This document shows, piece after piece, positions 1 to 14,775 of a DNA stretch of 14,783 bases. Source of the stretch: a virus (lineage: Duplodnaviria > Heunggongvirae > Uroviricota > Caudoviricetes); IMG/VR virus record IMGVR_UViG_3300042298_002704, one strand, 5' to 3'. The notes below the pieces were generated by a model. It ran no database searches, had not been told where the DNA came from, and saw only the letters and a list, made by a program, of their open reading frames with translations. Position 1 is the first letter of the stretch. Each line of letters begins with the position of its first letter. Both the position numbers and the translations under genes were made by a program.

Positions 1-2
1 GA

Positions 3-392
3 ACTCGTTTATACGAAAGTCAACTTCAATACACAAAAGAGGAAAGGAAGGCATTTTTAGAATCCATTCGAGAGTTTGGTAATTTCAAAAAAGAACTTTT
101 CCGTGAAAGTGGAATTGTAAATGAAAAAACGGGGCGACCTGTTGCATTTAGTCAAAGGTTAAAACAAATAAGTGAAGAAATTGGTCAGTTAATTGAAACC
201 GCCGAAGCATTTACTTTACAAGAAACTGAAAATAACTTTGATAAAATTGCAGTTTCCAGAGATTTAAAAGAAATTAAAAATGATTATAAAATCTTTGAAA
301 AGGCTTGTATGGAAATGGCCGGATTACAACAAAGAGTTGAATTTACATATGAAAATATGGCAAATAAATTAGGGAGATATTATGACATCTAA
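3..392 (+). CDS. Conserved phage hypothetical protein of the head/bS21 gene cluster (5'-truncated by window edge)
   Basis: Not in the ORF track. Frame 3 is open from base 3 to TAA at 390-392 and reads TRLYESQLQYTKEERKAFLESIREF...FDKIAVSRDLKEIK...LQQRVEFTYENMANKLGRYYDI*. It looks helical and overlaps the next ATG (382) by 11 nt. Confidence 0.8.
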   Translation, partial: TRLYESQLQYTKEERKAFLESIREFGNFKKELFRESGIVNEKTGRPVAFSQRLKQISEEIGQLIETAEAFTLQETENNFDKIAVSRDLKEIKNDYKIFEKACMEMAGLQQRVEFTYENMANKLGRYYDI

Positions 393-654
393 ACCAACTA
401 AAAGACAAATCAGAATCGTAGAGCATTTTGTTAAGAAAGTAGTTTTGCGTGAAAATACTCTACATGAACAAGACTGGTTATTTAAAGGTTTTACATTTGA
501 TGACTTAATTACTGCTTTACAAAGTAATGAACGCGATATAAACGAAAATTCTGTTAAAAAGGTTTTTAAAGAATTATATAACGAATCTATGGAAAACGCT
601 CTATACGAATTGAAAACAAATATGAATCAAATAATAAAACTTGCAAGTAGATAA
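382..654 (+). CDS. Hypothetical protein, probable head-associated/internal protein with KPTKRQI...EHFVK leader
   Basis: 90-aa ORF packed into the head operon. GGGAG at 372-376 lies 5 nt before the ATG. The leader motif recurs inside the ORF at 1359. Confidence 0.7.
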   Translation: MTSKPTKRQIRIVEHFVKKVVLRENTLHEQDWLFKGFTFDDLITALQSNERDINENSVKKVFKELYNESMENALYELKTNMNQIIKLASR

Positions 655-658
655 TTAA

Positions 659-880
659 ATGCACCCAAAAAAACTAAGAAACATCGTTCCCGGAAAAGTT
701 CAATCCATCAAAGTGGTTGACAATGATTTGAGTACAGCCTTAAAGGTTTGGAAAAAAATGTTAAAAGAAAACAATACGATTGAAGATTGTTATGAAAATA
801 AGTTTTATAATAAACCTTCGCGTCAAAAAAGATTAGCAAAAAATACTGCTATTTATTTACAATCAAAAGAGGCAAAATAA
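659..880 (+). CDS. rpsU: Phage-encoded 30S ribosomal protein bS21
   Basis: 73 aa, basic. Pattern I-K-V-x-D-N-D-L-x-x-A-L-K-x-W-K-K ... F-Y-x-K-P-S-x-x-K-R matches the bS21 signature (V...ie.ALrrfKr...yeKPS..rr). It lies beside scaffold and capsid genes, the location reported for bS21-encoding large phages. Confidence 0.85.
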   Translation: MHPKKLRNIVPGKVQSIKVVDNDLSTALKVWKKMLKENNTIEDCYENKFYNKPSRQKRLAKNTAIYLQSKEAK

Positions 881-1354
881 ATGCCACCAAAAGAAGCACC
901 TCCTCAACAACCGCCAAAAGGCCAGAAACCTCAAATGGCTCCTCCCAAACAGGAACCAAAGGCTTCACCCGTCAAAAAAGAGAAACCACAACCAAAGGTT
1001 CAGAAGGATGAAACATTAAAGTTTCAAATGTCCTATGCCAATGGCGGTTTCAATAATGGTATTGAAATCAAACCTGCCAAAGATGGTAAGTTAGAATTAT
1101 CAATTACCATATATGGTGGTGGAGAAAATAAAAAATTAGGAATTTCAGGTTATAGTCCCCAAATTCAAAAATTAGTTCAAGCCTATGAAGTTGGCGCGTC
1201 TACGGAACAAAACGTTGAAGATATAACCAAAAACTTGAAACAATATTTTGAAAGAGTTAATCAGGTTCTTTCCTTGAAAGTGATTGAAATATTACAACAA
1301 ACCGATAACCAAATCAAAGAAGCAATTAAACAAACATTTAAAGAGGTAAAATAA
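881..1354 (+). CDS. Hypothetical protein with Pro/Gln/Lys-rich disordered N-terminus
   Basis: 157-aa ORF whose ATG directly follows the bS21 TAA in the same frame. The first ~42 aa are low complexity (PPKEAPPQQPPKGQKPQMAPPKQEPK). Confidence 0.7.
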   Translation: MPPKEAPPQQPPKGQKPQMAPPKQEPKASPVKKEKPQPKVQKDETLKFQMSYANGGFNNGIEIKPAKDGKLELSITIYGGGENKKLGISGYSPQIQKLVQAYEVGASTEQNVEDITKNLKQYFERVNQVLSLKVIEILQQTDNQIKEAIKQTFKEVK

Positions 1355-1358
1355 ACAA

Positions 1359-1835
1359 ATGGATGAATTTTCAACTAAAAACGTATCAAGAGAATTTTTA
1401 CGCAAAACTCTTGACTTTTTGAATAATGCGGGAATTTCATATGATTTTGACGGTCCGAACGAAACTCTACGTTTTGATATAACTGAATTGAGTAAAAAAA
1501 ATCAAGAAATAATTTTGAAACAATTTAAACCATTAAATGAATCTATGAAACCAACCAAAAGACAGATTCAAATTGCTGAACATTTTGTTAAACGGGTTTT
1601 GAGTGAAGAAAACGTTTATGGTTATTTCAAACGAAAATTTCCAGATTATGAATTAGTTCAAATAAATCATCCTACGTTTGATGATCCTGATTATTCGTAT
1701 GTAATGAAGCGTCAACGCGAACTTAAACCAGTATATATAGATGATGAGAAAGTTCCATATCATGTGGATACTAAAAATAAAATTGTTCGTTGGATGCGAA
1801 TCAACAAAAGTAATAAGCGCATTTCAAAAATATAA
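1359..1835 (+). CDS. Hypothetical protein, two-module, probable head internal protein
   Basis: 158 aa. GAGGT at 1343-1347. An internal PLNES-M-KPTKRQI...EHFVKRVLSEE (ATG at 1545) repeats the leader of the ORF at 382. Confidence 0.7.
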   Translation: MDEFSTKNVSREFLRKTLDFLNNAGISYDFDGPNETLRFDITELSKKNQEIILKQFKPLNESMKPTKRQIQIAEHFVKRVLSEENVYGYFKRKFPDYELVQINHPTFDDPDYSYVMKRQRELKPVYIDDEKVPYHVDTKNKIVRWMRINKSNKRISKI

Positions 1836-1864
1836 ATTTTACATATTTAGGTTTTCTGAAAAAC

Positions 1865-1882
1865 TTACATATTTATATTTAA
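1865..1882 (+). promoter_or_regulatory. Candidate phage late promoter TTACATATTTATATTTAA
   Basis: Lies in the only large intergenic gap of the head operon. It is 16/18 identical to TTAGATACTTATATTTAA upstream of the minus-strand GIY-YIG gene (14775-14758). Function is inferred. Confidence 0.5.
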
Positions 1883-1885
1883 TTT

Positions 1886-1950
1886 ACAGTTTTAAAATAA
1901 ACTGTCCTACCTATACAAATATTTTATTATCGAACCTTAAAATAGGTTTG
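1886..1950 (+). promoter_or_regulatory. Twin 7-bp RNA hairpins with identical UAAAAU loops in the scaffold 5' leader
   Basis: ACAGTTT-TAAAAT-AAACTGT (1886-1905) and CGAACCT-TAAAAT-AGGTTTG (1931-1950, one G-U pair). The stems differ, the loops are identical, and the spacing is 45 nt. Confidence 0.6.
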
Positions 1951-1969
1951 CTCGCCAAAAATAAAATTT

Positions 1970-1975
1970 AAGGAG
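1970..1975 (+). promoter_or_regulatory. Shine-Dalgarno sequence (AAGGAG) of scaffold gene
   Basis: AAGGAG lies 8 nt before the ATG at 1984. Confidence 0.8.
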
Positions 1976-1983
1976 TAATTTTA

Positions 1984-3012
1984 ATGGCAAAGAAGAACAT
2001 TTTAGCAGAAGCAATTGCTGATGCCAAAGATTTGCGCGAAACCGCAGTCGCAAACGCAAAAATCGCATTGGAAGAAACATTCACCCCAACTTTACAACGT
2101 TTGGTTTCAACCCGAATTCAAGAAGAAGATGAAGACGGAGAAGTTGACATTGACTTGAATTTTTCCGGTGGTGAAGATACGGCAATGGGTTTTGATACGT
2201 TTGATGACGGCGGTGACGAAGAATCTGAACCAGTAGCAGATGAAGATGAAATGGAAATGGAATCTTTAATGCGTGAACTTGACGGAATGGACGACGATGA
2301 ACCGGTCATGGAATATGATGAAGAAGAACTTGAAGAAGCACTTTCTCGTGTATTTGAAAGTGACGATGAAATGGAGTTGGACGAAGAATTTGACGGTGAA
2401 GAACTTGAAGAAGGTGAAGAAGAAGATTGGCAAGACCCTATCGGTGAAAGTTATGACGAAGAAGAACTTGAAGAAGCACTTTCTCGTGTATTTGAAATGG
2501 ATGGGCTTGGCGATGATCTTGACATGGGTGAAAATCACGAAGATGGTTCTGCATTCACTGAAAATCCTCCTTCCGGACCGCAATTCTTGGAACGTCGTAG
2601 ACTTCGCAATGAAAACGCAAAACTTAGATCACAATTGAAAAAACTGCAAAAACAACTGAATGAAAGTTTACGTGCAAATGTAACTTATAAAAAGGTTCTT
2701 AACGAAGTTAATCTATTAAATTCAAAACTTATGTATAATACCAAAGTATTGCGTAAATTTGATTTGACAGAAGGTCAGCGCGAAAGAATTCTTAACAGTT
2801 TTGACCGCGCAGGTTCGGTCCGTGAAGTTGAATTAGTTTATACCACTGTTTGTGAAGCGTTTAACAAAAAATCAACCAAGACCAGAATGACAGAAGGTTT
2901 TGCATCAAAAAATGTTAGACAGATCAATCCTTCCCGTCAAGGAAACATTGTAAATGAAGGTTTGGTTGATAGAATGCAACGTTTGGCAAACATTAAAAGA
3001 TTAGATGACTAA
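1984..3012 (+). CDS. Prohead core scaffold protein (functional analogue of T4 gp22)
   Basis: 342 aa, directly upstream of the major capsid gene. It has an N-terminal helix (LAEAIADAKDLRETAVANAKIALEETF), a very acidic disordered middle, a coiled coil (ENAKLRSQLKKLQKQLNES...LNEVNLLNSKLMY) and a C-terminal RMQRLANI tail typical of scaffolds in T4-like large phages. Confidence 0.85.
   Translation: MAKKNILAEAIADAKDLRETAVANAKIALEETFTPTLQRLVSTRIQEEDEDGEVDIDLNFSGGEDTAMGFDTFDDGGDEESEPVADEDEMEMESLMRELDGMDDDEPVMEYDEEELEEALSRVFESDDEMELDEEFDGEELEEGEEEDWQDPIGESYDEEELEEALSRVFEMDGLGDDLDMGENHEDGSAFTENPPSGPQFLERRRLRNENAKLRSQLKKLQKQLNESLRANVTYKKVLNEVNLLNSKLMYNTKVLRKFDLTEGQRERILNSFDRAGSVREVELVYTTVCEAFNKKSTKTRMTEGFASKNVRQINPSRQGNIVNEGLVDRMQRLANIKRLDD
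2314..2497 (+). repeat. 46-nt direct repeat inside the scaffold gene (2314-2359 and 2452-2497) encoding YDEEELEEALSRVFE
   Basis: The copies differ at one base (gat/gac), and the last 40 nt are identical. A partial third copy (gaagaacttgaagaag) lies at 2398-2413. Confidence 0.9.
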
Positions 3013-3014
3013 AC

Positions 3015-3050
3015 AACCTTTAAAGGTTAATTTAAACAAAAAAATAGGAG
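3015..3050 (+). promoter_or_regulatory. MCP leader: 14-bp palindrome AACCTTTAAAGGTT (3015-3028) and Shine-Dalgarno TAGGAG (3045-3050)
   Basis: Read directly from the 49-nt gap between scaffold and MCP. The SD is 11 nt from the ATG at 3062. Confidence 0.6.
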
Positions 3051-3061
3051 AAAATGAATAA

Positions 3062-4729
3062 ATGAATATTAGCGATTTGCTACCAAAAGATGCGTATGCA
3101 AACCAACGTAAACAAGCACAAATGCTGACCCGTAAGTGGGAAAAGACGGGCTTGTTGGAAGGTTTGCGCGGCGCAGAAAAAGGAAATATGGCGCAACTCT
3201 TGGAAAATCAAGCGCGCCAATTAGTAACAGAAGCAAACCAAACTGGAACCGTAGCAGGTTCGGAAGAATGGTCGGGCATTGCTCTTCCCTTGATCCGCCG
3301 TATTTTTGCGGAAGTGAGTGCAAAAGACTTCGTTTCCGTTCAGCCAATGAATATGCCTTCTGGTCTTGTATTCTGGTTGGATGTTAAATACGGAACTGGA
3401 CAGCCCGGATTTAATACCAATTCTGGGAAAGATTCTCAAAATGATAGTGTTTTCGGCGTAAGTGATCCCGCCAAAGGAACAGGTGCTTCTTACGGATGGT
3501 CTACTCCGAGTGAGGGTCTTTATGGTCCCGGACGTTTTGGTTACACTATTAATGATTATTCAAGTTCTGCATTGGGTGTCGCGGGCGCAGTGAGTTCGAC
3601 TCAATTTGTGACTGGATCGGTTTCTGCAATTGATTATAATTTCAGTTCTGAATTTTCGCAGTCAATTTTGGTAAATACCACGTCCAGATTACACAAAATT
3701 ACCGTTTCGACCGCATCTATTAGCGGGTTCGATACAGTAGGCGTTCGTGCGTTTACATTATCAAATACAACCAATAATTTGGTGTATGATATTTATAACG
3801 AATTTACTAAGTACAATAAAGACGCTGGAACGGTAACGTTCATTGTGTCGGGCGCAGCCCTTGCTGCAGCTGACCGGATTGTTGTAAATTATCACAAACA
3901 ACCAACTTCAATTACCAGAGGTGACTTTGAAGCAGGTAAAACTCAAGCTGGTTCAAACATTGATACTGATTTGGATATTCCAGAATTGAGCCTTGAATTG
4001 CGTCAAGATCCAATTGTTGCTAAAACTCGTAAGTTGAAAGCAAAATGGACTCCTGAATTTGCACAAGACTTGAATGCATACCAGAACATTGACGCTGAGG
4101 CTGAATTGACTGGTATCTTGGGCGAATATATTTCTCAGGAAATTGACCTCGAAATCTTGGATATGTTGGTTTCAGAAGCACCGAGCGCACATACCGATTA
4201 CTGGTCTACCCGTATTGGTTATGAATATAACGGTTCTTCATTTAACCCAATTACTGCCAACTTGACAGCCTACACGCAAGGAACTTGGTTCCAAACACTT
4301 GGAACTAAAATCCAGAAAATGTCAAATAGAATCCACCAAGCAACTGTTCGCGGTGGCGCAAACTTCTTGGTTTGTTCTCCGTTAGTTGCAACTATTTTGG
4401 AATCTATTCCGGGATATGCTGCCGATACTGATGGTAACCAAGCGAAATTCTCAATGGGTGTTCAAAAAATTGGTGCGTTGAATAACCGTTTCCAAGTTTA
4501 CAAAAACCCATACATGAAAGAGAATTTGATTTTGATGGGTTATCGCGGTTCGCAGTGGCTCGAGACGGGGGCCTACTACTCGCCTTATATTCCTTTGATT
4601 ATGACCCCAACAATTCTTGACCCAGACAACTTTACACCGAGAAAAGGGGTAATGACGAGGTACGCAAAAGGTGTAACTCGTCCCGAATTTTACGGTAAAT
4701 TATATGTCGAAGGATTGAACACCCTTTAA
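3062..4729 (+). CDS. gp23: Major capsid protein, T4 gp23-like
   Basis: 555 aa with gp23 motifs: KWEKTGLLEG, MAQLLENQ, LPLIRR, VQPMNMPSGLVF, AKTRKLKAKWTPEFAQDL, DAEAELT.IL...I..EID.EI, RGGANFLVCSP, GAYYSPYIPL, FTPRKGVMTRYA. A likely maturation site is LVTE/A at residue 57. Confidence 0.97.
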   Translation: MNISDLLPKDAYANQRKQAQMLTRKWEKTGLLEGLRGAEKGNMAQLLENQARQLVTEANQTGTVAGSEEWSGIALPLIRRIFAEVSAKDFVSVQPMNMPSGLVFWLDVKYGTGQPGFNTNSGKDSQNDSVFGVSDPAKGTGASYGWSTPSEGLYGPGRFGYTINDYSSSALGVAGAVSSTQFVTGSVSAIDYNFSSEFSQSILVNTTSRLHKITVSTASISGFDTVGVRAFTLSNTTNNLVYDIYNEFTKYNKDAGTVTFIVSGAALAAADRIVVNYHKQPTSITRGDFEAGKTQAGSNIDTDLDIPELSLELRQDPIVAKTRKLKAKWTPEFAQDLNAYQNIDAEAELTGILGEYISQEIDLEILDMLVSEAPSAHTDYWSTRIGYEYNGSSFNPITANLTAYTQGTWFQTLGTKIQKMSNRIHQATVRGGANFLVCSPLVATILESIPGYAADTDGNQAKFSMGVQKIGALNNRFQVYKNPYMKENLILMGYRGSQWLETGAYYSPYIPLIMTPTILDPDNFTPRKGVMTRYAKGVTRPEFYGKLYVEGLNTL

Positions 4730-4757: not shown

Positions 4758-4791
4758 GGCTTAACTCATTAATTTGGGTTAAGCCTTTTTT
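4758..4791 (+). terminator. Intrinsic terminator of the head operon
   Basis: GGCTTAACTCA-TTAATT-TGGGTTAAGCC (11-bp stem, one U-G pair) followed by TTTTTT, 28 nt after the MCP stop. Confidence 0.85.
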
Positions 4792-4812
4792 GTTATTGAG
4801 ATGTTAAACAAT

Positions 4813-4843
4813 TTTGAAAATTGAAATATTATACATATCTTTG
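4813..4843 (+). promoter_or_regulatory. Bacteroidota housekeeping-sigma promoter (-33 TTTG / -7 TAnnTTTG)
   Basis: TTTG (4813-4816), a 19-nt spacer and TATCTTTG (4836-4843), ending 15 nt before the ATG at 4859. It matches the established Bacteroides/Flavobacterium consensus. Confidence 0.75.
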
Positions 4844-4858
4844 TAAAAACATTAAAAT

Positions 4859-6961
4859 ATGAATTGTAAAATTTGTAACAAAGAATTAACTAAAAAGCAA
4901 ACTCAATTTTGCTCTATTGAATGTAAATCAAAGTCACAGGGTCAACAACCAAAAGAAGTTTTTGATAATACCAAAATTTACAAAAGCAAAATTGACGGTA
5001 AAGAATTTAGTCTTGGAGGGCTTCGAGCCGGAGCATTGTTAAAATATTCGGAAAAAACTTTAAATAAAGAATTTAACATTAATGATTGGGAGATCGTTGA
5101 CAATCCAAAAAACAATGATCGGCGATGGAATTGTCCGCATTGTGATTGGTCAGGTAAAACGTTAAATGGTGTAGATAATGGTGGCTGGGTTGCAAAACAT
5201 TTATTAACTCGACACACAATTGATAAAGTAACTCATGTAGAACAGTTTCCAGATGATTCGATATTGTGGCCAAATCAGTTAATCAAGGCTCAGAAAAAAG
5301 TTAAAATTAACGAATCGCCCGAAAATCGAGTTCAGTGTATGGTGTGTGGGGAATTTATGTCAAGAATTAATAATTCGCATTTGAAAACGCACGGAATGAC
5401 CGAAGTTGAATATAAATTAAAGTACGGTAAGGATTCTATTTCTTCAAAAGCGTTCCGCAAAAGAATGTCCGAAATTTATTATCAAAATGATAAGATGCAA
5501 TCAAAATTATCCCGGTCGAAATACGAAGATGAACTTTGTGAGTTTTTCAATGCGTTGGGAATTGAAGTAGTTACCAATAATAAATCTATGCTAAGTATGG
5601 ATATAGATTTATATTTACCCGAATTCAAACTGGCTATCGAGTTTAATGGTCTTTATTTTCATTCTGAACTTGGGGGCGAAAAAACTGAAATGTATCATTT
5701 AAATAAAACAAAAAAATGTGAACAAAATGGTATTCAGTTAATTCATATATTTGAAGATGAATGGGTTAATAAACGTGAAATTGTTTCAAGTAGGCTGAAA
5801 AATCTTGTAAAGAAAACTGAAAATGTTGTGTATGCGCGAAAGTGTAATTTAAGAGAAGTCTCGTATCAAGAAGCAAAAACCTTTTTAAATGTAAATCATT
5901 TACAGGGATCGAACTCAAATATGCCTGTTCGGTTAGGACTTTATTCGAATGACGAACTCGTGTCATTGATGACATTTTCAAAAGTTAGAAACTCAACTGG
6001 AAATAAAATTAAGTCTGAAAACGATTGGGAATTGTTACGATTTTGCAACAAGTTAAATTTTAACGTAATTGGCGGTGCAAGTAAACTATTAAAATATTTT
6101 GAAATTAACTTTAACCCCAATAACATAACTTCGTTTGCAGATCGACGATGGACACCATCGTTCAAAAATTCATTATATGATGAATTGAAGTTCACATTGA
6201 CTTCAAAAGGTTCGCCTAATTATTGGTATTTGGTCGAACCTATGAAACGTCATCACCGTTTTAATTTTACAAAACATCGAATTATTGAAAGGTTCCCCGA
6301 TGCAGATAAAAATGAAAGTGAATGGCAAAATATGGTAAATTTGGGCTTTGATCGAATTTGGGATTGTGGTTCGTTAAAATATGAAAAGAGGTTTGAAAGA
6401 AATTCAATTGTAAATAAGGATGAACCAAACGAACGCTCTCACGAAATCATAAACAAGCCCAAACGTAGAAGAAAACGCAAAGAAACTACGCGAAATATTT
6501 CGGACGTTAAATGTCAAATATGCAGAAATTCATATTCAATTGTCGGAATTGCATCTCATTTTATTCGTAACCATGAGATGACTGTTGATGAATATGTTTC
6601 AAAATTTGGAGAATATCGTCCATCTAAATTAAAAGAACTTGAAATAAAAAACAAGTCTGTCGGAGATTTTACTTGTAAAATTTGTGGATTCGAATGTAGA
6701 GGCGAAAAGCACTTATCAGTTCATGTATTGAACCAGCATAATTTGAAAAAACTTGATTATGTAATTCAATATTTATTTAATGGGCAAATACCAAAATGTA
6801 AATGCGGCTGCGGAATTGAAGTTGGAATTTTAAGTTATTCGCCATATTATCGAGAATTTATTTCGGGACACAATTCAAGAAATGGGTTGAATTCGATGAG
6901 TGGCAGACAACATTCAGAAGAAAGTAAAAATAAGATGTCCAAACCAAAACGAAAAAAATAA
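4859..6961 (+). CDS. Free-standing Hef-like homing endonuclease: multiple Zn fingers + Vsr-like PD-(D/E)xK nuclease + Mom-like GNAT domain + NUMOD3
   Basis: Zn motifs include CKIC...FCSIEC, CPHC..KHLLTRH, CMVC..SHLKTH, CQIC..SHFIRNH, CKIC..HVLNQH and CKCGCG. Nuclease core: SKYEDEL...DIDLYLPEFKLAIEFNGLYFHS...LIHIFEDEW. GNAT-like block: NHLQG...WELLRFC...GGASKLL...SFADRRW...LY...IWDCG. C-terminal GRQHSEESKNKMS is NUMOD3-like. Confidence 0.75.
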   Translation: MNCKICNKELTKKQTQFCSIECKSKSQGQQPKEVFDNTKIYKSKIDGKEFSLGGLRAGALLKYSEKTLNKEFNINDWEIVDNPKNNDRRWNCPHCDWSGKTLNGVDNGGWVAKHLLTRHTIDKVTHVEQFPDDSILWPNQLIKAQKKVKINESPENRVQCMVCGEFMSRINNSHLKTHGMTEVEYKLKYGKDSISSKAFRKRMSEIYYQNDKMQSKLSRSKYEDELCEFFNALGIEVVTNNKSMLSMDIDLYLPEFKLAIEFNGLYFHSELGGEKTEMYHLNKTKKCEQNGIQLIHIFEDEWVNKREIVSSRLKNLVKKTENVVYARKCNLREVSYQEAKTFLNVNHLQGSNSNMPVRLGLYSNDELVSLMTFSKVRNSTGNKIKSENDWELLRFCNKLNFNVIGGASKLLKYFEINFNPNNITSFADRRWTPSFKNSLYDELKFTLTSKGSPNYWYLVEPMKRHHRFNFTKHRIIERFPDADKNESEWQNMVNLGFDRIWDCGSLKYEKRFERNSIVNKDEPNERSHEIINKPKRRRKRKETTRNISDVKCQICRNSYSIVGIASHFIRNHEMTVDEYVSKFGEYRPSKLKELEIKNKSVGDFTCKICGFECRGEKHLSVHVLNQHNLKKLDYVIQYLFNGQIPKCKCGCGIEVGILSYSPYYREFISGHNSRNGLNSMSGRQHSEESKNKMSKPKRKK

Positions 6962-6962
6962 G

Positions 6963-6977
6963 TTAACAACTTGTTAA
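6963..6977. repeat. Perfect inverted repeat TTAACAA-C-TTGTTAA (possible operator)
   Basis: A 7-1-7 palindrome directly after the endonuclease stop and 13 nt upstream of a -33 box. Confidence 0.5.
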
Positions 6978-6990
6978 TGTTCAAAAAACA

Positions 6991-7022
6991 TTTGGTAGGT
7001 TCAAAAAATGCACCTACTTTTG
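6991..7022 (+). promoter_or_regulatory. Bacteroidota housekeeping-sigma promoter for the accessory operon
   Basis: TTTG (6991-6994), a 20-nt spacer and TACTTTTG (7015-7022), ending 19 nt before the ATG at 7042. Confidence 0.7.
6995..7021 (+). terminator. Possible intrinsic terminator overlapping the promoter
   Basis: GTAGGTTCA-AAAAA-TGCACCTAC (8 of 9 pairs) followed by TTTT, downstream of the endonuclease gene. Confidence 0.45.
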
Positions 7023-7041
7023 TGTATAAAATTTTTGAAAC

Positions 7042-7248
7042 ATGACCATAATACTAACCTTTATTTACCTGATATCCAATCGCTCGCTAATTGTTTATAA
7101 ATATGATTATCAAGCAGCGATTGGTTCTTTGGGAATAATGCGTTCCCTTGGTTGGATTATTGCAAATATTCAAGTTAATGAAACGATTTTGCAAGAACCT
7201 CCGTTTATTTGTCGAACTTTTAACTCAATACCAGAAAAATATCTATGA
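7042..7248 (+). CDS. Hypothetical protein
   Basis: 68 aa, first ORF behind the promoter, with ATGA overlap into the next gene. No recognised motif. Confidence 0.45.
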   Translation: MTIILTFIYLISNRSLIVYKYDYQAAIGSLGIMRSLGWIIANIQVNETILQEPPFICRTFNSIPEKYL

Positions 7249-7616
7249 TAAACATAAATAGTTACTTTTCATTTGATGTGAACGTTTTTGACCAGCCAGT
7301 CAAAAGATCAAAATATGAATACCCGTATTCATACGACGCTCACATTATTCATCGTCTACGAGACAATGTTGACGGTATGACTTCAGTTTATTCGGATCGG
7401 ATGATGCACTGGGGTTGGGAAAAATTTCACGATTCCTGTCAAGAAATATTTGGGGATAGCGGGCAATTGTTCAACACCTCAAAAAGAACTCCCAAGTTGA
7501 TTGAAAAATTCTTGCAACGTTATTTTGACGAACCTGAACTTCAACTAATTGCAGTTGAGGAAGGTTGTAACGTTTCAAATGGTTACCCGTATTGGGTATT
7601 TCACTTTAAAAAATGA
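7245..7616 (+). CDS. Conserved phage hypothetical protein
   Basis: 123 aa with a conserved-looking pattern seen in phage proteins of unknown function: YPYSYD, VYSDR...W, FG..GQ, IEKFL..Y, EGCNVSNGYPYWVFHF. Confidence 0.75.
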   Translation: MININSYFSFDVNVFDQPVKRSKYEYPYSYDAHIIHRLRDNVDGMTSVYSDRMMHWGWEKFHDSCQEIFGDSGQLFNTSKRTPKLIEKFLQRYFDEPELQLIAVEEGCNVSNGYPYWVFHFKK

Positions 7617-7622
7617 ATTACC

Positions 7623-7829
7623 ATGTTCGAAATCGGAGATATTGTTGCATATAGGAAATGGGATTGGACACATTGCCAGTTTCATCCCGATAAATGGGTT
7701 ATCATTGACCGTGACCATATTCATCTACAATATGATGATTACGTTTGGGAATATACAATTCAAAATCAGGAAACTGGCGAAGTTATAACAAACGTAACAG
7801 ATATTCAAATAAAAAACTTTTATGAGTAA
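7623..7829 (+). CDS. Hypothetical protein (small beta-rich, F.IGD.V start)
   Basis: 68 aa filling the gap between neighbours. The MFEIGDIV start is typical of small SH3/KOW-like phage proteins. Confidence 0.6.
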   Translation: MFEIGDIVAYRKWDWTHCQFHPDKWVIIDRDHIHLQYDDYVWEYTIQNQETGEVITNVTDIQIKNFYE

Positions 7830-8412
7830 GATAACCTTCATAGGCGACGTTCATGGCAAGGTTCATGAATATAAAAAAATTGTTGACAAATGTGAATTTA
7901 GCATTTGTGTAGGTGATGTTGGATTCGAACCTGAATTCAACTGGTTGAAGAAGCAAACATTTGATGGTACTCATTATATTGTTCCGGGAAATCATGATTA
8001 TATCCCAGATAGATATTCATTTCCGTATATTGGTGATTATGATGAAATTGAATATTATTCAATTTTTATGGTTCGCGGAGCCGAATCAATCGATAAACAT
8101 ATTCGAATTGAAGGTTTGGATTGGTTCGCAAATGAAGAACTTTCGTATTCAGAACAACTTGAAGCGTTTGACGAATATATTAAGGTTAAACCTGAAATTG
8201 TCGTTTCCCACGATTGTCCGCAGTCGGTTATGGAAAAACTTTTTGGTTATCCCGAAAAATCACAAACCAGAACTATGTTAGAAATGATGTTTCAAGAACA
8301 CCAACCTCAACTTTGGGTTTTTGGCCATCATCACCGATCAAAGGACGTTCAAATAAATGGAACAAGGTTTGTTTGTTTAAATGAACTTGAAACAATGACA
8401 TTGGAACTGTAA
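7822..8412 (+). CDS. Calcineurin-like metallophosphoesterase
   Basis: All five motifs are present: IGDVHG, VGDVG, PGNHD, VSHDCP, FGHHH. Confidence 0.92.
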   Translation: MSKITFIGDVHGKVHEYKKIVDKCEFSICVGDVGFEPEFNWLKKQTFDGTHYIVPGNHDYIPDRYSFPYIGDYDEIEYYSIFMVRGAESIDKHIRIEGLDWFANEELSYSEQLEAFDEYIKVKPEIVVSHDCPQSVMEKLFGYPEKSQTRTMLEMMFQEHQPQLWVFGHHHRSKDVQINGTRFVCLNELETMTLEL

Positions 8413-8431
8413 ACTATTAAAAAATAAATAA

Positions 8432-9268
8432 ATGATAAAAAGATTAATTCGAGAAAAAGTTTTTGAAACAAACTCAAGTTCGTGTCATTCAATTTCTTTG
8501 GGTAAGGATACTGGTAAACAATTTCTACTCGATACCATTTATCCGGATCAAAACGGAATCATTACTTTAACTGGTGGTGAATTTGGTTGGGAATGGTTTA
8601 AAGAGAATGATGCATTCGAAAAGGCAAATTATGCCGCCGTAGCATCAATGTATAATGATTCATTTAGGGAAACATTAATCCAAGTAATCAAGGATCAAAC
8701 CGGATGTGAAGAAGTTATCTTTAACGTTATAGGCGAAACAAGTTACATCAATCATAATTCTGTGGGAACCTGTCCGACTGATTATGACGGGTTAAAGGAT
8801 TTCATATTCAATAAAAATTCATGGCTGTTCGGGGGAAATGATAATTCTTCTCCTGATCCAACCTTTTATCATGTTCCCGAATATAAGGACGGGAAAATGA
8901 TCCAACCTATATATAAATGGGAATTGGTAATTGATGGATTTAAAAAAACCACCAAGTTTTTAACCTTCCCTTCCAGTGAAGAAATTGAAAATGGATTGGA
9001 ATCATTAATCGGTGGCGTATATTACAATAATGGTGTATTTGACGATGATAATGGGTTTTATGCACAAATAAATAGGAATACAAAGCAATGGCTCTATTAT
9101 TCTTCATATCGCCTTCCTGCTGATATTGAAAATGGAATTATTTATTTCGTTACAGACGATTATTTGCAACCTGCCGGCAAAATGCCGTATCAAGAACGTG
9201 AAAAACTTGCAAGAGAATTTTATAAAAAAACCGCCCAAGCGGTAAAATTTTCGATCAATGAACTTTAA
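8432..9268 (+). CDS. Conserved phage protein of the FETNSSSxHS family, function unknown
   Basis: N-terminal LIREKVFETNSSSCHS, then GGEFGW, KANYAA, YINHNS and LFGGNDN. It overlaps the radical SAM gene by 11 nt. Confidence 0.75.
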   Translation: MIKRLIREKVFETNSSSCHSISLGKDTGKQFLLDTIYPDQNGIITLTGGEFGWEWFKENDAFEKANYAAVASMYNDSFRETLIQVIKDQTGCEEVIFNVIGETSYINHNSVGTCPTDYDGLKDFIFNKNSWLFGGNDNSSPDPTFYHVPEYKDGKMIQPIYKWELVIDGFKKTTKFLTFPSSEEIENGLESLIGGVYYNNGVFDDDNGFYAQINRNTKQWLYYSSYRLPADIENGIIYFVTDDYLQPAGKMPYQEREKLAREFYKKTAQAVKFSINEL

Positions 9269-10136
9269 AAACGGTAACGCTGAAATAACCATTTATAACG
9301 ATGGGACACGCATAATTGAGTTTGAAGATCAGTTGAAATTAGATTGGCCTTTAAATATTGACATTCGGGTTTCAAATCGTTGTTCATTTGGTTTTAATCC
9401 TAAAATCAATTCCGCCTTTTGTTCCTTTTGTCATGAAAGTGCAAGGACTGACGGAGGTGAATGTGATTATGAAATTCTTAAAGATAAATTAAAAGATTTA
9501 CCTGCTGGAATTGAATTGGCAATTGGAGGAAATGAAATTACGGGTGAATTGTGTAACTTTTTAAATTGGGCGTCATTTGGCAAAAGGTTTATTTGTAATT
9601 TAACCGTGAATCAAGGTCATATTTACAAATATAGGTTCCCATTGATGACATTAATTAAATTTAAAGTTATTAAAGGACTTGGAATTTCGTATCGTTCAAG
9701 TCTTAAATGGAATATTCCAAAAGAATTTTTGAATTATGAAAATACTGTCTTTCACGTAATTGCTGGAATTGATTCAGTTCAGGACATTCTTACACTGGCA
9801 GAACGCGGAGTCAAAAAGGTTTTGGTTCTCGGAGAAAAGAATTTTGGTTTCAACGAAGGTAAGGTCGATTTGACAACTCGAAGTCATAAAGAATGGTATC
9901 GGAATGTTAGAAAATTATTTGATACCTTCGACGTAGTTTCATTTGATAACCTTGCACTTGACCAATTGAATATTAACAGATTCTTTTCAAACGATAAATG
10001 GAGTGAATTTAACCAAGGTGAACATTCATTCTATATCAATGCAGTTGATGGTTATTTTTCTCCATCTTCTCGTTCTAACGATAAAGCAGATTGGAATTCG
10101 GTTTCAATCAAAGATTATTTTCAAGTCAAAGCCTAA
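9258..10136 (+). CDS. Radical SAM superfamily protein with expanded Cys motif
   Basis: IDIRVSNRC-SFGFNPKINSAF-CSFCHES (CX12CX2C), ELAIGG (GGE-like), CNLTVN, GLGIS and a SFYINAV..SPSS C-terminal strand. Confidence 0.8.
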   Translation: MNFKNGNAEITIYNDGTRIIEFEDQLKLDWPLNIDIRVSNRCSFGFNPKINSAFCSFCHESARTDGGECDYEILKDKLKDLPAGIELAIGGNEITGELCNFLNWASFGKRFICNLTVNQGHIYKYRFPLMTLIKFKVIKGLGISYRSSLKWNIPKEFLNYENTVFHVIAGIDSVQDILTLAERGVKKVLVLGEKNFGFNEGKVDLTTRSHKEWYRNVRKLFDTFDVVSFDNLALDQLNINRFFSNDKWSEFNQGEHSFYINAVDGYFSPSSRSNDKADWNSVSIKDYFQVKA

Positions 10137-10141
10137 ATTTC

Positions 10142-10211
10142 GCCCTCTAATCAATTCTTTTTTATTTGTTGAAGTTAGGTACTTATAGATAAAGAAAGTC
10201 GATTATAGGGC
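10142..10211. other. Intergenic long imperfect stem-loop
   Basis: GCCCTCTAATC (10142-10152) pairs with GATTATAGGGC (10201-10211) at 10 of 11 positions. Inner TTCTTT (10155-10160) pairs with AAAGAA (10191-10196). Confidence 0.45.
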
Positions 10212-10231
10212 ATTTTAAAACGTTTAAAATT

Positions 10232-10420
10232 ATGTTTGATTTACTTGATGAAATGTGCGCCAGTATTATCGAATGTTCGGTTGAAGAATACATTGAACTT
10301 ACTAAAAAAGTTCCCGATACTGACGCGGAATATTTAGGCGACTTGCTTGGTAAAATTATTTTTCAAAATGAATCTGCTGAAAAAGAATTTAAAGAATATT
10401 TTGATAAATTGAAAAAATGA
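10232..10420 (+). CDS. Hypothetical protein
   Basis: 62 aa, acidic and helical, with an A/T-rich leader and ATGA overlap into the next ORF. Confidence 0.6.
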   Translation: MFDLLDEMCASIIECSVEEYIELTKKVPDTDAEYLGDLLGKIIFQNESAEKEFKEYFDKLKK

Positions 10421-10734
10421 ACAAATTTAATACCTATCCTGAATCGTGGCGAGAAATTTCAAATAAAGAATTTACTCGTGCCTTTTTCTCCTATCAAAAG
10501 GAACCTTTGGAATATCGCCAAATGTATATTGATAAAGATGATATTAAAATTGGAATGTGTCATGCAAATTTATTTGTTATTAAAGGAACCCGAAATCAAT
10601 ATGGTGAAGACGGTTTAGGTCTTGCAATGTTTGAAGTTGAACAAGAAACCAAGTTTGCAAAGTTCGGTTCAGAAGAAAACTGGCAAAAATTCCAATCATA
10701 TATAGCCTCGCAATTTAGCGGTGATAATTCTTAA
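10417..10734 (+). CDS. Hypothetical protein
   Basis: 105 aa, coupled to its neighbours. Confidence 0.65.
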   Translation: MNKFNTYPESWREISNKEFTRAFFSYQKEPLEYRQMYIDKDDIKIGMCHANLFVIKGTRNQYGEDGLGLAMFEVEQETKFAKFGSEENWQKFQSYIASQFSGDNS

Positions 10735-11551
10735 ACAAATGAAATACATTAATTTAGTTTTTCCAGAAAAAAGTGACCATATATTCAAAATTTCAAAATT
10801 TCCGGATGGTCAAGTAAATGCTTCATTTCCGTTTATTTATTCTGTTGAACCATATCGAATTATAAGTCGAATGTCGTCATACGAAGACTTGTATAAAATT
10901 CGAGCAGTTAATCAAGTTTTAAGAGATGCAAATGTTCAGTATGTTGAACTTTATTGCCCATATATTCTTGCAGCAAGATCGGATCGTAAATTTCAGGAAT
11001 ACCAAAGTTTTGATTTGAAATTGGTTGCGCAAGATATTAATTCTTGTAAATTTGATAAAGTTTTTGTACTTGATCCACATTCGGATGTTTTACCAGCACT
11101 TGTTGAAAACTGCATTCCGTTGGATGCGTTAACTGGTTGGTTGAGTTGGATTAAAAATCCTACCCATTTTTGGGAAAATAAAACTTTGATAAGTCCGGAT
11201 GCAGGAGCGTTTAAAAAGTTGTTTAAAATTTCAGAACAATTGAATGTCCCACTTATAACTGGTTCAAAGGTTAGATTTGATGGTAAAATCGATACTGTTT
11301 TTCATGGCGATGTAAATGGTAAAGAATGTGTCATTGTGGATGATATTTGTGATGGTGGTAGAACGTTTGTTCAACTTGCAAACAAATTGAAAGACTTAGG
11401 AGCCAGTAAAGTAATTTTGATGGTCACGCATGGTATTTTTTCCAATGGTCTAACCTTGGAAGGGATTGATGAAATTTACACCACAAATTCATATCGAGAA
11501 TTTGATTTGTCTGGAATTTCAGATAGGTTTCATGTTATAAATGTTTATTAG
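10721..11551 (+). CDS. prs: Ribose-phosphate pyrophosphokinase-like protein (probable NARP1 Adps, ADPR pyrophosphokinase); real start may be ATG 10739
   Basis: FPDGQ, PYILAARSDR, LDPHS, ISPDAGA, VIVDDICDGGRTF (PRT-family PRPP-binding loop) and THGIFS. A NAMPT-like gene lies 1.3 kb downstream. Confidence 0.9.
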   Translation: MIILKQMKYINLVFPEKSDHIFKISKFPDGQVNASFPFIYSVEPYRIISRMSSYEDLYKIRAVNQVLRDANVQYVELYCPYILAARSDRKFQEYQSFDLKLVAQDINSCKFDKVFVLDPHSDVLPALVENCIPLDALTGWLSWIKNPTHFWENKTLISPDAGAFKKLFKISEQLNVPLITGSKVRFDGKIDTVFHGDVNGKECVIVDDICDGGRTFVQLANKLKDLGASKVILMVTHGIFSNGLTLEGIDEIYTTNSYREFDLSGISDRFHVINVY

Positions 11552-11553
11552 AA

Positions 11554-11823
11554 ATGATAGATTTAAATCAAGTTCCACTTAAAATTCAAATACAGTTAAT
11601 TGAACATTATAAACATATCGAGTCGGAATGTAGAACCTTTGTTGGAAATTATTCTAAGACGTGTCCAGCCGATAGCACAGTACAAGATTTTTTGGATTAT
11701 GTGTATCAATCATCATTTGAATACACAGTAGTTGCATTTTTTATATTTAAAAATGATGTTGAATATAAAGAAAAGATTTGGTTAGTAATATTTGATAAAA
11801 TAAACTCGCTATTAAATGAATAA
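11554..11823 (+). CDS. Hypothetical protein
   Basis: 89 aa, tightly packed between prs and the HAD gene. Confidence 0.6.
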   Translation: MIDLNQVPLKIQIQLIEHYKHIESECRTFVGNYSKTCPADSTVQDFLDYVYQSSFEYTVVAFFIFKNDVEYKEKIWLVIFDKINSLLNE

Positions 11824-12256
11824 ATTTCAAAAAAGGTTAATTGACGAATGGTCACAATACGGTAAAATAATCATTGCCGTTGATTTTGACGACACTATTT
11901 CCCCCTTCAAATTTAATGAAATTGAGGATAATCAATTTTATGTTCGAGTTTGGAATCTTCTAAATCAATGTTATCAAACGGGTGCATATATCGTTTGTCA
12001 TACAAGTTGCAATCCAGATCGTTACGAATTTATTCAAAATGAATTTAAACGAAATGGTATTCCAGAAGTTCATATCAACCAAACTCCAATTGATTTACCT
12101 TACGGAAATACAGGTTCAAAAGTTTATGCAAATATTTACTTGGATGACCGGGCAGGTTTAAATGAAGCATTGGAAATGTTGGAAACTGCATTATATCATC
12201 AACGAGGAAAACTTCAAAGTGAACGTTCATCGTATCCCGGTTCATTGGGATTTTAA
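11816..12256 (+). CDS. HAD-superfamily hydrolase (small phage type)
   Basis: Motif I IIAVDFDDT (DxDxT), motif II CHTS and motif IV YLDDR. Confidence 0.8.
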   Translation: MNKFQKRLIDEWSQYGKIIIAVDFDDTISPFKFNEIEDNQFYVRVWNLLNQCYQTGAYIVCHTSCNPDRYEFIQNEFKRNGIPEVHINQTPIDLPYGNTGSKVYANIYLDDRAGLNEALEMLETALYHQRGKLQSERSSYPGSLGF

Positions 12257-12266
12257 AAATAAAAAT

Positions 12267-12608
12267 ATGACTAAACTTTTTTATCGAATTGGTACTGATA
12301 CAAACGAAGGTTTATGGTATGACAAAAATGGTAATTTCACCGGATTGATTCATTCAAAGTTTGATTTTTGTACTAACTCGAAACTTGAAATGCCTTATGA
12401 TCCTGAAATTGTTGGTTATTTGTCAGTAGCAGATTCACTTGAACATTTATACCAATGGTTTACAAAACAGGATATTCTGAAATTGCAAGAATACGGTTTT
12501 TCAATTTTGGAATATAAATCGTTTGAATGGAAATTTTATCAACCATTTCAACATAACGTCATAAAACAAACATCATCAATATTAACCAATAAACTAATTT
12601 TAGTATGA
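12267..12608 (+). CDS. Conserved phage hypothetical protein (start moved from 12162 to ATG 12267)
   Basis: ATG 12267 follows the upstream stop (12256) and an A-rich leader. The longer start overlaps the HAD gene by 95 nt. The protein reads LFYRIG..EGLWYD..GNFTGLIH..FC.N..L.MP.D...GYLS...L..WF. Confidence 0.7.
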   Translation: MTKLFYRIGTDTNEGLWYDKNGNFTGLIHSKFDFCTNSKLEMPYDPEIVGYLSVADSLEHLYQWFTKQDILKLQEYGFSILEYKSFEWKFYQPFQHNVIKQTSSILTNKLILV

Positions 12609-12874
12609 AAGCACAGAAAAAACCAGTAATAATTGATTACATTCAAGTTGAAACACCAATAAATTTGAGCGAAATATTTGAATGGGTAACTTCATTTGGT
12701 CAAAATTTTTACCAACATTTCAAATATAATATTCACACAGAAGAATTTTCAGTTAAAACGCTTGAAGGGGCGTCATATTCAGTTTCGAGTGATGACGTGA
12801 TAATTCGAGGCATTAAGGGCGAATATTATCCTTGTAAAAAGGATATTTTTGAACAAACTTACGAAATAATTTAA
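12605..12874 (+). CDS. Conserved small phage protein (KKPV...TLEG...YPCKxDIFxxTYE family, PGDYG-like)
   Basis: KKPVIID, KTLEG and DVIIRGIKGEYYPCKKDIFEQTYE form a very common phage signature. Confidence 0.8.
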   Translation: MKAQKKPVIIDYIQVETPINLSEIFEWVTSFGQNFYQHFKYNIHTEEFSVKTLEGASYSVSSDDVIIRGIKGEYYPCKKDIFEQTYEII

Positions 12875-12891
12875 ACTAAAATAATAAAAAC

Positions 12892-13731
12892 ATGAGTTTT
12901 AAAATTAATTCACTTTATTTGACCGACGGATACAAAACGTCTCACAAAGAAATGCTTGCCAAAGGTACAACTCGATTGTACGGAACTTGGATTCCGAGAA
13001 GTACCAAACACGCTCCGAAAGGAGTTTCAAAAATAGTTTCCTTTGGGCAGCAAATGACTTGGAAGTATATTCACGACCAATTTCAAGAAAACTTCTTTGA
13101 ATTGAGTTGGCAAGATGCACAAGTTTTTGTTTCTGATATGAACCTTTATTTAGGTTTACCTTTTGATGGTTCACATTTCAGACAACTTCACGAACTTGGG
13201 TATTTGCCCATTCGAGTCAAATCGTTGCCAGAAGGAATTGAAACAAATCCGAATATCCCGCATATGACCTTTGTCAATACAGTTGACGGGTTTGCGTGGT
13301 TGACTTTATATTTGGAAACGTTGGTTTCAAGTTTAGCATGGAAACCAAGTACATCAGCAACCATTGCGCTACAATATCGTCGTAATGTTGAAAAATGGGT
13401 TAAAAAAACTGATCCAAATCAATCATTTTTGATTCCGTTTCTTTGTCATGACTTTTCAGCACGAGGTTTGAATCCTCACGATATGATCGCATCCGGGTTA
13501 GGTCATGCAACAAGTTTTAGAGGTTCGGATACGTTGCCAGTAATTCCTGCTGCAAGATATTATTATAACGAACCTCAAAATGAAGTTTGTATTAATTCGA
13601 TTCCGGCTTCCGAGCATTCCTGCGCAACCGGGAATATTTTATTGTTTGAAGAAGAATATTATGTTCAAGTAACTTACGATGATGACGGAAATGTGGTTTC
13701 CGAAATTGAAGTTGATGCTCCTGCTTTATAA
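12892..13731 (+). CDS. nadV: Nicotinamide phosphoribosyltransferase-like protein (probable NARP1 Namat), N-terminal ~half only
   Basis: TDGYKTSH, PIRVKSLPEG, WLTLYLET, WKPST.AT, HDFSARG, GSDT and IPASEHS are present. It stops at 279 aa, without the SIVSD/RPDSG-type C-terminal motifs of full-length (~500 aa) NAMPTs. Confidence 0.88.
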   Translation: MSFKINSLYLTDGYKTSHKEMLAKGTTRLYGTWIPRSTKHAPKGVSKIVSFGQQMTWKYIHDQFQENFFELSWQDAQVFVSDMNLYLGLPFDGSHFRQLHELGYLPIRVKSLPEGIETNPNIPHMTFVNTVDGFAWLTLYLETLVSSLAWKPSTSATIALQYRRNVEKWVKKTDPNQSFLIPFLCHDFSARGLNPHDMIASGLGHATSFRGSDTLPVIPAARYYYNEPQNEVCINSIPASEHSCATGNILLFEEEYYVQVTYDDDGNVVSEIEVDAPAL

Positions 13732-14752: not shown

Positions 14753-14775
14753 CTCCTTTAAATATAAGTATCTAA
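14753..14775 (-). promoter_or_regulatory. Candidate late promoter (TTAGATACTTATATTTAA) plus Shine-Dalgarno AAGGAG for the GIY-YIG gene
   Basis: The minus strand reads ...TTAGATACTTATATTTAAAGGAGAAAAAAATATG. The SD is 8 nt from the ATG, and the 18-mer is 16/18 identical to 1865-1882. Confidence 0.6.

Follow-up and report, generated by a model that had tools for sequence, protein, structure and literature searches.

The window, by which we mean the whole 14,783-nt (14.8 kb) stretch of the IMG/VR virus record IMGVR_UViG_3300042298_002704 (Caudoviricetes), has 33% G+C and carries all its genes but one on the plus strand. It covers that end of a T4-like phage which bears the head module, and the host is of the Bacteroidota. 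A gene encoding the ribosomal protein bS21 (rpsU) lies in this head module, and several of its neighbours, including the scaffold and capsid genes, are preceded by Shine-Dalgarno (SD) sites. The ribosomes of Bacteroidota usually disregard SD sites. In Flavobacterium johnsoniae, bS21, bS18 and bS6 sequester the anti-SD of the ribosome, and when bS21 is lost or the pocket is mutated, the anti-SD is released and SDs can be used (PMC7797042, PMC9976891, PMC13000457). Within the phage family to which the window belongs, the SD dialect was found only in phages with a bS21 gene in the head module. The features of the window are the following (ORF, open reading frame; energies are those of the duplex with the anti-SD).

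3..392, plus strand: C-terminal part of an all-helical protein of about 135 aa; the hidden Markov model (HMM) of the family matches window positions 2-389 (E 1.5e-32)
372..376, plus strand: weak SD GGGAG, 5 nt 5' of the ATG at 382 (-7.6 kcal/mol)
382..654, plus strand: 90-aa ORF, with a 23-residue motif in common with ORF 1359-1835
629..658, plus strand: leader of the bS21 gene, A-rich and SD-less (-1.1 kcal/mol); the bS21 start lies 4 nt past the stop of the upstream ORF
659..880, plus strand: phage ribosomal protein bS21, 73 aa (Pfam PF01165, E 2.2e-9)
868..872, plus strand: weak SD AGAGG, 8 nt 5' of the ATG at 881, within the 3' end of the bS21 coding sequence (-5.8 kcal/mol)
881..1354, plus strand: 157-aa ORF
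1343..1347, plus strand: SD GAGGT, 11 nt 5' of the ATG at 1359 (-7.2 kcal/mol)
1359..1835, plus strand: 158-aa ORF
1869..1877, plus strand: ATATTTATA, candidate late promoter element, enriched in relatives, in the 148-nt gap 5' of the scaffold gene
1970..1975, plus strand: SD AAGGAG, 8 nt 5' of the scaffold ATG at 1984 (-7.4 kcal/mol)
1984..3012, plus strand: prohead scaffold gene, 342 aa (position 5' of the capsid gene and ortholog group)
3045..3050, plus strand: SD TAGGAG, 11 nt 5' of the capsid ATG at 3062 (-7.3 kcal/mol)
3062..4729, plus strand: major capsid protein, T4 gp23 type (Pfam Gp23, E 3e-78; PHROG 138, E 2e-71)
4758..4795, plus strand: intrinsic terminator with an 11-bp stem and a T run, ending the scaffold-capsid unit
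4813..4843, plus strand: Bacteroidota-type promoter (TTTG, 19-nt spacer, TATCTTTG), with 15 nt between its end and the SD-less HNH gene
4859..6961, plus strand: HNH homing endonuclease gene, 700 aa, SD-less (PHROG 3339, E 1.6e-103)
6991..7022, plus strand: second Bacteroidota-type promoter (TTTG, 20-nt spacer, TACTTTTG), 5' of ORF 7042-7248
7042..13731, plus strand: 14 accessory or metabolic genes, every leader A/T-rich and SD-less; they include genes for a metallophosphoesterase, an Fe-S oxidoreductase-like protein, a PRPP synthetase, a phosphoheptose-isomerase-like protein and the N-terminal half of NAMPT
13674..14744, minus strand: GIY-YIG homing endonuclease gene, with an SD AAGGAG at 14753-14758, 8 nt 5' of the ATG at 14744 (-8.0 kcal/mol)

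A previous reading made from the letters alone (hereafter the sequence-only reading) had reported clear SD motifs in front of the scaffold gene (AAGGAG, 8 nt), the major capsid gene (TAGGAG, 11 nt) and the GIY-YIG gene (AAGGAG, 8 nt), and weaker ones in front of the ORFs starting at 382 (GGGAG) and 1359 (GAGGT). All of them were found in the sequence, and an additional weak site (AGAGG) precedes ORF 881. The same reading described the 15 accessory starts (4859 to 12892) as free of GGAG and GAGG and the phage rpsU gene as lacking an SD; both statements hold. The accessory leaders are A/T-rich and their nearest approach to an SD is a GGTGA located 14 nt 5' of 10739, while rpsU has an A-rich leader (-1.1 kcal/mol). 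With a threshold of -6 kcal/mol or lower for the duplex with the anti-SD core, 6 of the 20 called genes of the window were retained, versus 5.8% of random positions. An SD precedes 6 out of 7 head-module or GIY-YIG genes and none of the 15 accessory genes (Fisher exact test, P ~ 1e-4). The word AGGAG itself is not enriched in the window (13 found vs. 9.6 expected): the non-random feature is the placement of this word 5' of start codons, not its frequency.

We then fetched 304 loci around capsid homologues from IMG/VR with four capsid queries, and added the corresponding regions of the two cultured phages whose capsid proteins are most similar to that of the window, Microcystis phage Mel-JY01 (56% identity) and Flavobacterium phage vB_FspM_immuto (51.5% identity; hereafter immuto). 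Against cultured phages, neither a megablast search with the window nor a tblastn search with its bS21 returned a match. For each locus, the capsid start was located, its leader was scored, and the six frames were searched with an HMM of phage bS21. Loci without bS21 were counted only if they extended 3.5 kb or more beyond the capsid gene on its 5' side (n = 82), and the huge phage LR756508 (capsid 51% identical) was left out of the locus counts. An SD-like site was found 5' of the capsid gene in 139 out of 146 bS21-positive loci and in none of the 82 bS21-negative loci, so that no bS21-negative relative displayed the SD pattern of the window at this gene. Five of the seven exceptions are artefacts of the start call or of the threshold (one GTG start behind TAGGAG, one alternative ATG and three borderline AAGGGA); the true exceptions, i.e. 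bS21-positive loci in which the capsid SD is absent, are L302 and L336. When pairing with the full Bacteroidia 3' tail (CACCUCCUUUCU) was considered, 87 of 101 distinct bS21-positive capsid leaders reached -6 kcal/mol or lower (median duplex energy of bS21-positive capsid leaders: -6.4 kcal/mol), versus 0 of 53 bS21-negative ones. The consensus of the capsid leaders is AAAAAAGGA(A/G)AAA and the SD consensus of the family is AAAGGA(G/A). The bases flanking the capsid SD vary freely among relatives while the motif is kept, which argues for selection on the SD motif itself. PF01165 was not found in the complete immuto genome or in six partial contigs of other bS21-negative lineages.

The association is not restricted to the capsid gene. 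Across the head module, 488 of 1489 genes (33%) have an SD in bS21-positive loci, versus 30 of 652 (4.6%, under background) in bS21-negative loci. The tetramers GGAG, GAGG and AGGA form a sharp peak 5-9 nt 5' of the ATG in 1486 genes of bS21-positive loci, with a maximum at 7-8 nt and about 0.2 motifs per gene, whereas the spacing profile shows no peak over the 652 genes of bS21-negative loci. Two properties of a canonical SD site, complementarity to the 16S tail and a spacing peak at 5-9 nt, are thus present. SD strength was also scored over the starts of eight long or complete genomes of relatives. In the six bS21-positive genomes, 7.6-17.8% of the starts reach -6 kcal/mol or lower, above backgrounds of 4.7-9.2%, and the two bS21-negative genomes are under background, with 1.3% and 3.3%. 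Finally, the phylogenetic INDEPENDENCE was based on 154 distinct capsid sequences, placed on a maximum-likelihood tree along which the presence of bS21 changes five times (a 46-sequence immuto-like clade; L320/L298/L319; L285/L280; a G004-like clade; L305). In every independent contrast the capsid SD goes the same way as bS21, and never the opposite way.

We investigated which genes carry an SD by grouping orthologs across the genomes of relatives, naming them with PHROGs and scoring SD motifs at 5-9 nt spacing. In bS21-positive relatives, 30 of 73 structural starts (41%) have an SD, compared with 12 of 110 replication or auxiliary starts (11%; Fisher test, P = 4e-6; group-level Mann-Whitney test, P = 4e-4); the enrichment on late genes expected by the sequence-only reading is thus observed in these relatives. 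The motif is best kept on the genes for the prohead protease (3/4), capsid (5/7), scaffold (5/7, vs. 0/1 in bS21-negative relatives) and tail tube (5/10), and is present in relatives on adaptor and baseplate genes. No SD was found in the ortholog groups of primase, helicase, DNA polymerase, clamp, exonucleases and most glycosyltransferases. The SD marks abundant late proteins, not every late gene. Two types of starts are used by these phages: SD-less starts with short A-rich leaders, on genes behind host-type promoters and on replication and metabolic genes, versus SD-led starts on the abundant late virion genes. Short, A-rich and SD-less leaders are the native style of Bacteroidia.

Within the 100 nt that precede structural genes, the element ATATTTATA is 8-16 fold enriched, whether or not the phage has bS21. 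The enrichment was seen 5' of the genes for tail tube, adaptor, portal, baseplate, terminase and scaffold, in the relatives G003, G005-G007, immuto and Mel-JY01, and the element is probably the late promoter of the phage family. As other candidate signals, the T4 late promoter TATAAATA displayed no enrichment in sense orientation and sigma-70 consensus promoters were not enriched.

The bS21 gene occupies a constant place in the head module. Genes are ordered as protease, 135-aa gene, bS21, variable ORFs, scaffold and capsid, and bS21 lies on the strand of the capsid gene in 99 out of 99 distinct loci. In 96 of these 99 loci its own gene is SD-less (three reach -5.5 kcal/mol), while a third of its neighbours are SD-led. 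In G005 and G006, the bS21 gene sits behind a late-type promoter element. A strong hairpin (ACACCTATCA...TGATAGGTGT) followed by a T run was also observed 13-20 nt 5' of the bS21 ATG, just past ATATTTATA, in the G005/G006 group (L029:7540-7608, L045, L039, L047); this structure may act as a terminator or form a 5' stem-loop on the bS21 mRNA.

The protein encoded at 659-880 scores 37.3 bits against the Pfam S21 family (PF01165; cut-off 27). For comparison with cellular bS21 proteins, PDB chains were used: a profile built from the phage bS21 proteins retrieves bS21 chains of the PDB with E-values as low as 1e-10, and the two best matches both have the Bacteroidia tyrosine motif, one of them being the F. 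johnsoniae chain 7jil_z. Tyr66 and Leu67 of the window protein align with Tyr54 and Ile55 of this chain, and its C-terminal tail (LQSKEAK, net charge +1) fits the less basic C-terminus of the Bacteroidia type. Its 73 aa and basic character fit a bS21, but the 12-13 extra N-terminal residues relative to the E. coli and F. johnsoniae chains, which are basic and include an [IV]PG motif, do not. Such a basic N-terminal extension, of 12-20 residues, is the distinguishing feature of the phage bS21 family, with an [IV]PG motif in most of the aligned members. At the position of Tyr54, the 146 bS21 proteins of the family have Y (98), F (17), R (24), K (2), L (3) or V (2), i.e. an aromatic residue in 115 of them (79%), and SD use is alike in phages with Tyr-type and Arg-type bS21. 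Loss of Tyr54 was therefore rejected as a general mechanism.

We then looked for evidence on the host. Two canonical Bacteroidota promoters (TTTG, spacer of 19-20 nt, TAnnTTTG) lie in the window, one before the HNH gene and one before ORF 7042. Promoters of the extended consensus were found 12 times in G002, a relative with a capsid 82% identical, and 13 times in G005, versus about 1.4 expected. In the scan for the bipartite promoter, only G002 and G005 were enriched; G004 and the window have few (3 vs. 0.7 expected and 1 vs. 0.1 expected, respectively), and none were found in G003, G006, G007, immuto and Mel-JY01. Among the scored promoter-proximal genes of G002, G005 and the window, 25 out of 26 have no SD. 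The host-style leaders proposed by the sequence-only reading are indeed seen here, as host-type promoters precede SD-less and often very short leaders. In G005 (L138-L146) and G002 (L131-L137), several genes begin 4-7 nt past the -7 box of a Bacteroidota-type promoter, and the early messages behind these close-set promoters should be leaderless or nearly so. The bS21-negative phage immuto was isolated on Flavobacterium, and the bS21-negative G004 has three Bacteroidota-type promoters. The promoters and the culture of immuto indicate that Bacteroidota are hosts of both bS21-positive and bS21-negative phages. The objection that the host is not a member of Bacteroidota fails because at least three bS21-positive genomes pair SD-less genes behind host promoters with SD-led late genes; the TTTG/TAnnTTTG promoters of the window, G002 and G005 and the Bacteroidia-type bS21 both point, indirectly, to such a host. 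Mel-JY01 (L107, PP395634.1) is the only cultured bS21-positive member and its annotated host is cyanobacterial (Microcystis). It has an SD on 10 of 12 genes behind the late-promoter element and a Lys at the Tyr54 position, and its genome is not enriched in Bacteroidota promoters. Either the phage family crosses phyla or this host assignment needs checking.

The co-occurrence of bS21 and SD motifs suggests, but does not prove, that the phage protein alters what the ribosome reads. Phage bS21 would appear late, translated by ordinary SD-blind ribosomes, for which its SD-less message is legible. It would then replace the host bS21 on 30S subunits, or fill in for it, and move the 16S 3' tail toward the free state; this release might be due to the basic N-terminal extension, or be achieved jointly with the helical 135-aa protein encoded nearby. 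Short SDs on the late phage messages would then be read and these messages would out-compete those of the host. That phage bS21 shifts ribosomes to a free-anti-SD state in which these short SDs get read is, in our estimation, a proposition that could equally be right or wrong. The fuller version, in which phage bS21, possibly with the 135-aa protein, turns the SD-blind ribosomes of Bacteroidota into SD readers and thereby favours the abundant late messages of the phage, is held tentatively, at slightly less than even confidence. The whole would be a feed-forward loop rather than a switch from early to late: from the position of its gene in relatives, bS21 would be made together with the SD-led messages, which a feed-forward loop fits better than a discrete switch, and an SD-less bS21 message would suit a self-starting loop because the first molecules must come from unmodified ribosomes. 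The late translational switch put forward by the sequence-only reading is partly supported: the three refuting conditions that it named were examined computationally, and none of them refuted the idea.

This proposal has both likenesses to and differences from known systems. As in F. johnsoniae, the status of bS21 would decide between a hidden and a free 16S 3' tail, and hence whether SD-led translation takes place, so that specialised ribosomes would act on a small set of SD-led messages. In F. johnsoniae, the 13-bp SD helix of rpsU sterically excludes bS21 (Jha 2021, PMC7797042; McNutt 2023, PMC9976891; Arpin 2026, PMC13000457). There, the host rpsU is the SD-led gene and the feedback is negative, whereas the phage rpsU is SD-less and the proposed loop is feed-forward. 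The SD-led genes of the phage are virion genes with short SDs of 4-7 nt, in contrast to the 13-bp helix of the host rpsU, and the signature of F. johnsoniae-type autoregulation, i.e. an extended SD on the bS21 gene, is not found in the phage. The closest counterparts are the Bacteroidetes myoviruses of Chen et al. 2022 (ISME Commun 2:31, PMC9723584). According to the parts of that article on which we draw, their bS21 is also located inside a conserved terminase/portal/protease/capsid region, their predicted hosts are Bacteroidota, and their bS21 has an aromatic residue at the Tyr54 position and a divergent N-terminus; unlike here, where bS21 is co-oriented with the head genes, it lies on the reverse strand. 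In the same parts, phage bS21 is reported to be expressed with structural genes and is proposed to substitute into ribosomes late and to favour phage messages, and SD sequences appear only as background, with neither SD motifs on phage genes nor co-variation with bS21. The Pelagibacter phage HTVC008M (Mizuno et al. 2019, PMC6375957) is likewise a T4-like aquatic myovirus encoding bS21, and this bS21 can enter E. coli ribosomes according to McNutt 2023 (PMC9976891). Its host, however, belongs to a different phylum without anti-SD occlusion, and PMC6375957 does not mention SD. Phage immuto (Immutovirus, MW353176) shares with the window the T4-like family, the capsid similarity given above, the order of head genes, ATATTTATA and, as a cultured phage, a Flavobacterium host. 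In contrast, its complete genome has no bS21, its starts are depleted in SD (3.3% vs. a background of 9.2%) and its capsid leader is A/C-rich, without G. Immuto is thus a natural negative control.

Several results weigh against the proposal that phage bS21 reprograms the ribosome. The bS21 of the window keeps the residues that stack on A1534 and help to occlude the anti-SD, and its sequence has no sign of an occlusion defect. In relatives, bS21 lies behind a candidate late promoter and would be made alongside the SD-led messages, not earlier, which suits a discrete switch less well than a feed-forward loop. SD motifs are rare on terminase and portal genes (about 20%), so late genes are not uniformly SD-led, and the SD may track abundance more than timing. 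The genome-wide scoring describes the eight relatives and not the window's own genome. The tree offers only 4-5 independent contrasts, with which a sign test cannot drop below P = 0.125; the link between bS21 and SD is consistent, yet not formally significant once relatedness is counted. Moreover, a second gene co-varies with bS21 almost as tightly as the SD does. The all-helical family of about 135 aa encoded between the prohead protease and bS21 (full-length relative L006:7139-7540; conserved motif WFDNVTVSRHMK...LQQRLE.AYEDIG..L.KYY) is present in 73 out of 76 bS21-positive loci and in 1 out of 50 bS21-negative loci. The causal gene may thus be another than bS21, or bS21 may share this role. 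No match to this family was found in Pfam, PDB, BFVD or viral models, and its Atlas neighbours are unnamed viral clusters. The 135-aa protein may work as a partner of bS21, may itself be the effector, or may simply belong to the prohead core.

A co-inherited factor, the 135-aa protein or another linked gene, could thus make SDs usable, with bS21 as a passenger or partner. Besides the distribution of the family, this explanation is favoured by the three bS21-positive loci without it, which use SD weakly (3/21, 3/15 and 2/8 genes). However, L305, the sole bS21-negative locus that keeps the family (as part of a longer ORF), has 0 SD genes out of 17, and the protein resembles no recognisable fold or family, is not known to be linked with the ribosome, and could be a component of the prohead core. 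We regard this explanation as improbable. We give the same low credence to a confounding effect of host lineage, in which bS21-positive phages infect SD-reading lineages, bS21-negative phages infect SD-blind ones, and the SD is ordinary tuning of expression. Mel-JY01, with its annotated Microcystis host, its Lys at the Tyr54 position and its lack of enrichment in Bacteroidota promoters, speaks for such an effect. Yet the window, G002 and G005 join SD-led late genes with canonical Bacteroidota promoters, only 1 of 26 genes behind the host-type promoters of these same genomes has an SD, and the Bacteroidia aromatic signature is found in 79% of the phage bS21 proteins; a host switch would also be required at each of the 4-5 transitions.

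It is also conceivable, though unlikely, that the SDs are read by host ribosomes that naturally lack or release bS21, and that phage bS21 has another role, such as sustaining SD-less translation once the host is shut off or opposing a defence that stalls translation; bS21 and SDs would then co-occur through a shared infection strategy. In wild-type F. johnsoniae, more than 10% of the ribosomes are estimated to be without bS21 and to prefer SD-led mRNA (PMC13000457). The host-like residues of the window bS21 at Tyr54/Ile55 agree with this explanation, and an SD-less phage bS21 gene would escape the autoregulation of the host type. On the other hand, making a host-like bS21 would shrink the very pool of ribosomes needed for the capsid genes, and neither the strict co-occurrence nor the joint change in 4-5 lineages would be expected. 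That the purine-rich motifs serve for processing, bind a protein or belong to a promoter, and are not SDs, is very improbable: many of them are short (AGGA or GGAG) and lie inside A-rich leaders, but their spacing peaks at the canonical 5-9 nt, they are complementary to the 3' tail of the 16S rRNA, and they are conserved amid varying flanks before many unrelated genes.

bS21 is the ribosomal protein most often found in viruses, and what its phage version does has been asked since 2019. In earlier proposals bS21 favours phage messages, but no feature marking these messages was given; the link with SD supplies a candidate cis mark, and we found no paper tying SD motifs on late genes to phage bS21. 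The link also makes the question directly testable, since F. johnsoniae strains with SD and SD-less reporters and cryo-EM protocols exist. If reprogramming by phage bS21 is true, nature would offer here a clear example of a virus that resets the initiation preference of the ribosome, i.e. its rules of start-site selection, and would provide a portable switch for SD-dependent expression in Bacteroidota.

Some further features of the window were observed. A mini-ORF of three codons (ATG AAT AAA TGA, 3054-3065) lies between the SD and the ATG of the capsid gene and overlaps this ATG. It is kept in the close relatives L007, L008, L012 and L046, while the capsid start is GTG in L009, and it may be a start-stop or re-initiation device. 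The segment KPTKRQI.I.EHFVK.V, of 23 residues, is common to ORF 382-654 (at 391-459) and ORF 1359-1835 (at 1548-1616), with 16 of 23 residues identical (E 6e-9); by this similarity, the two are head-module ORFs with a paralogous segment. The NAMPT gene (12892-13731, plus strand) ends at about half of the usual length, in a tail-to-tail overlap with the GIY-YIG gene (13674-14744, minus strand). The HNH endonuclease has a zinc finger of the ROS/MucR type, and its gene lies directly 3' of the capsid terminator with its own host-type promoter. Unlike the HNH gene, the GIY-YIG gene has a late-type element in addition to its SD, as one-mismatch copies of ATATTTATA are located 5' of it, at 14757-14771 on the minus strand.

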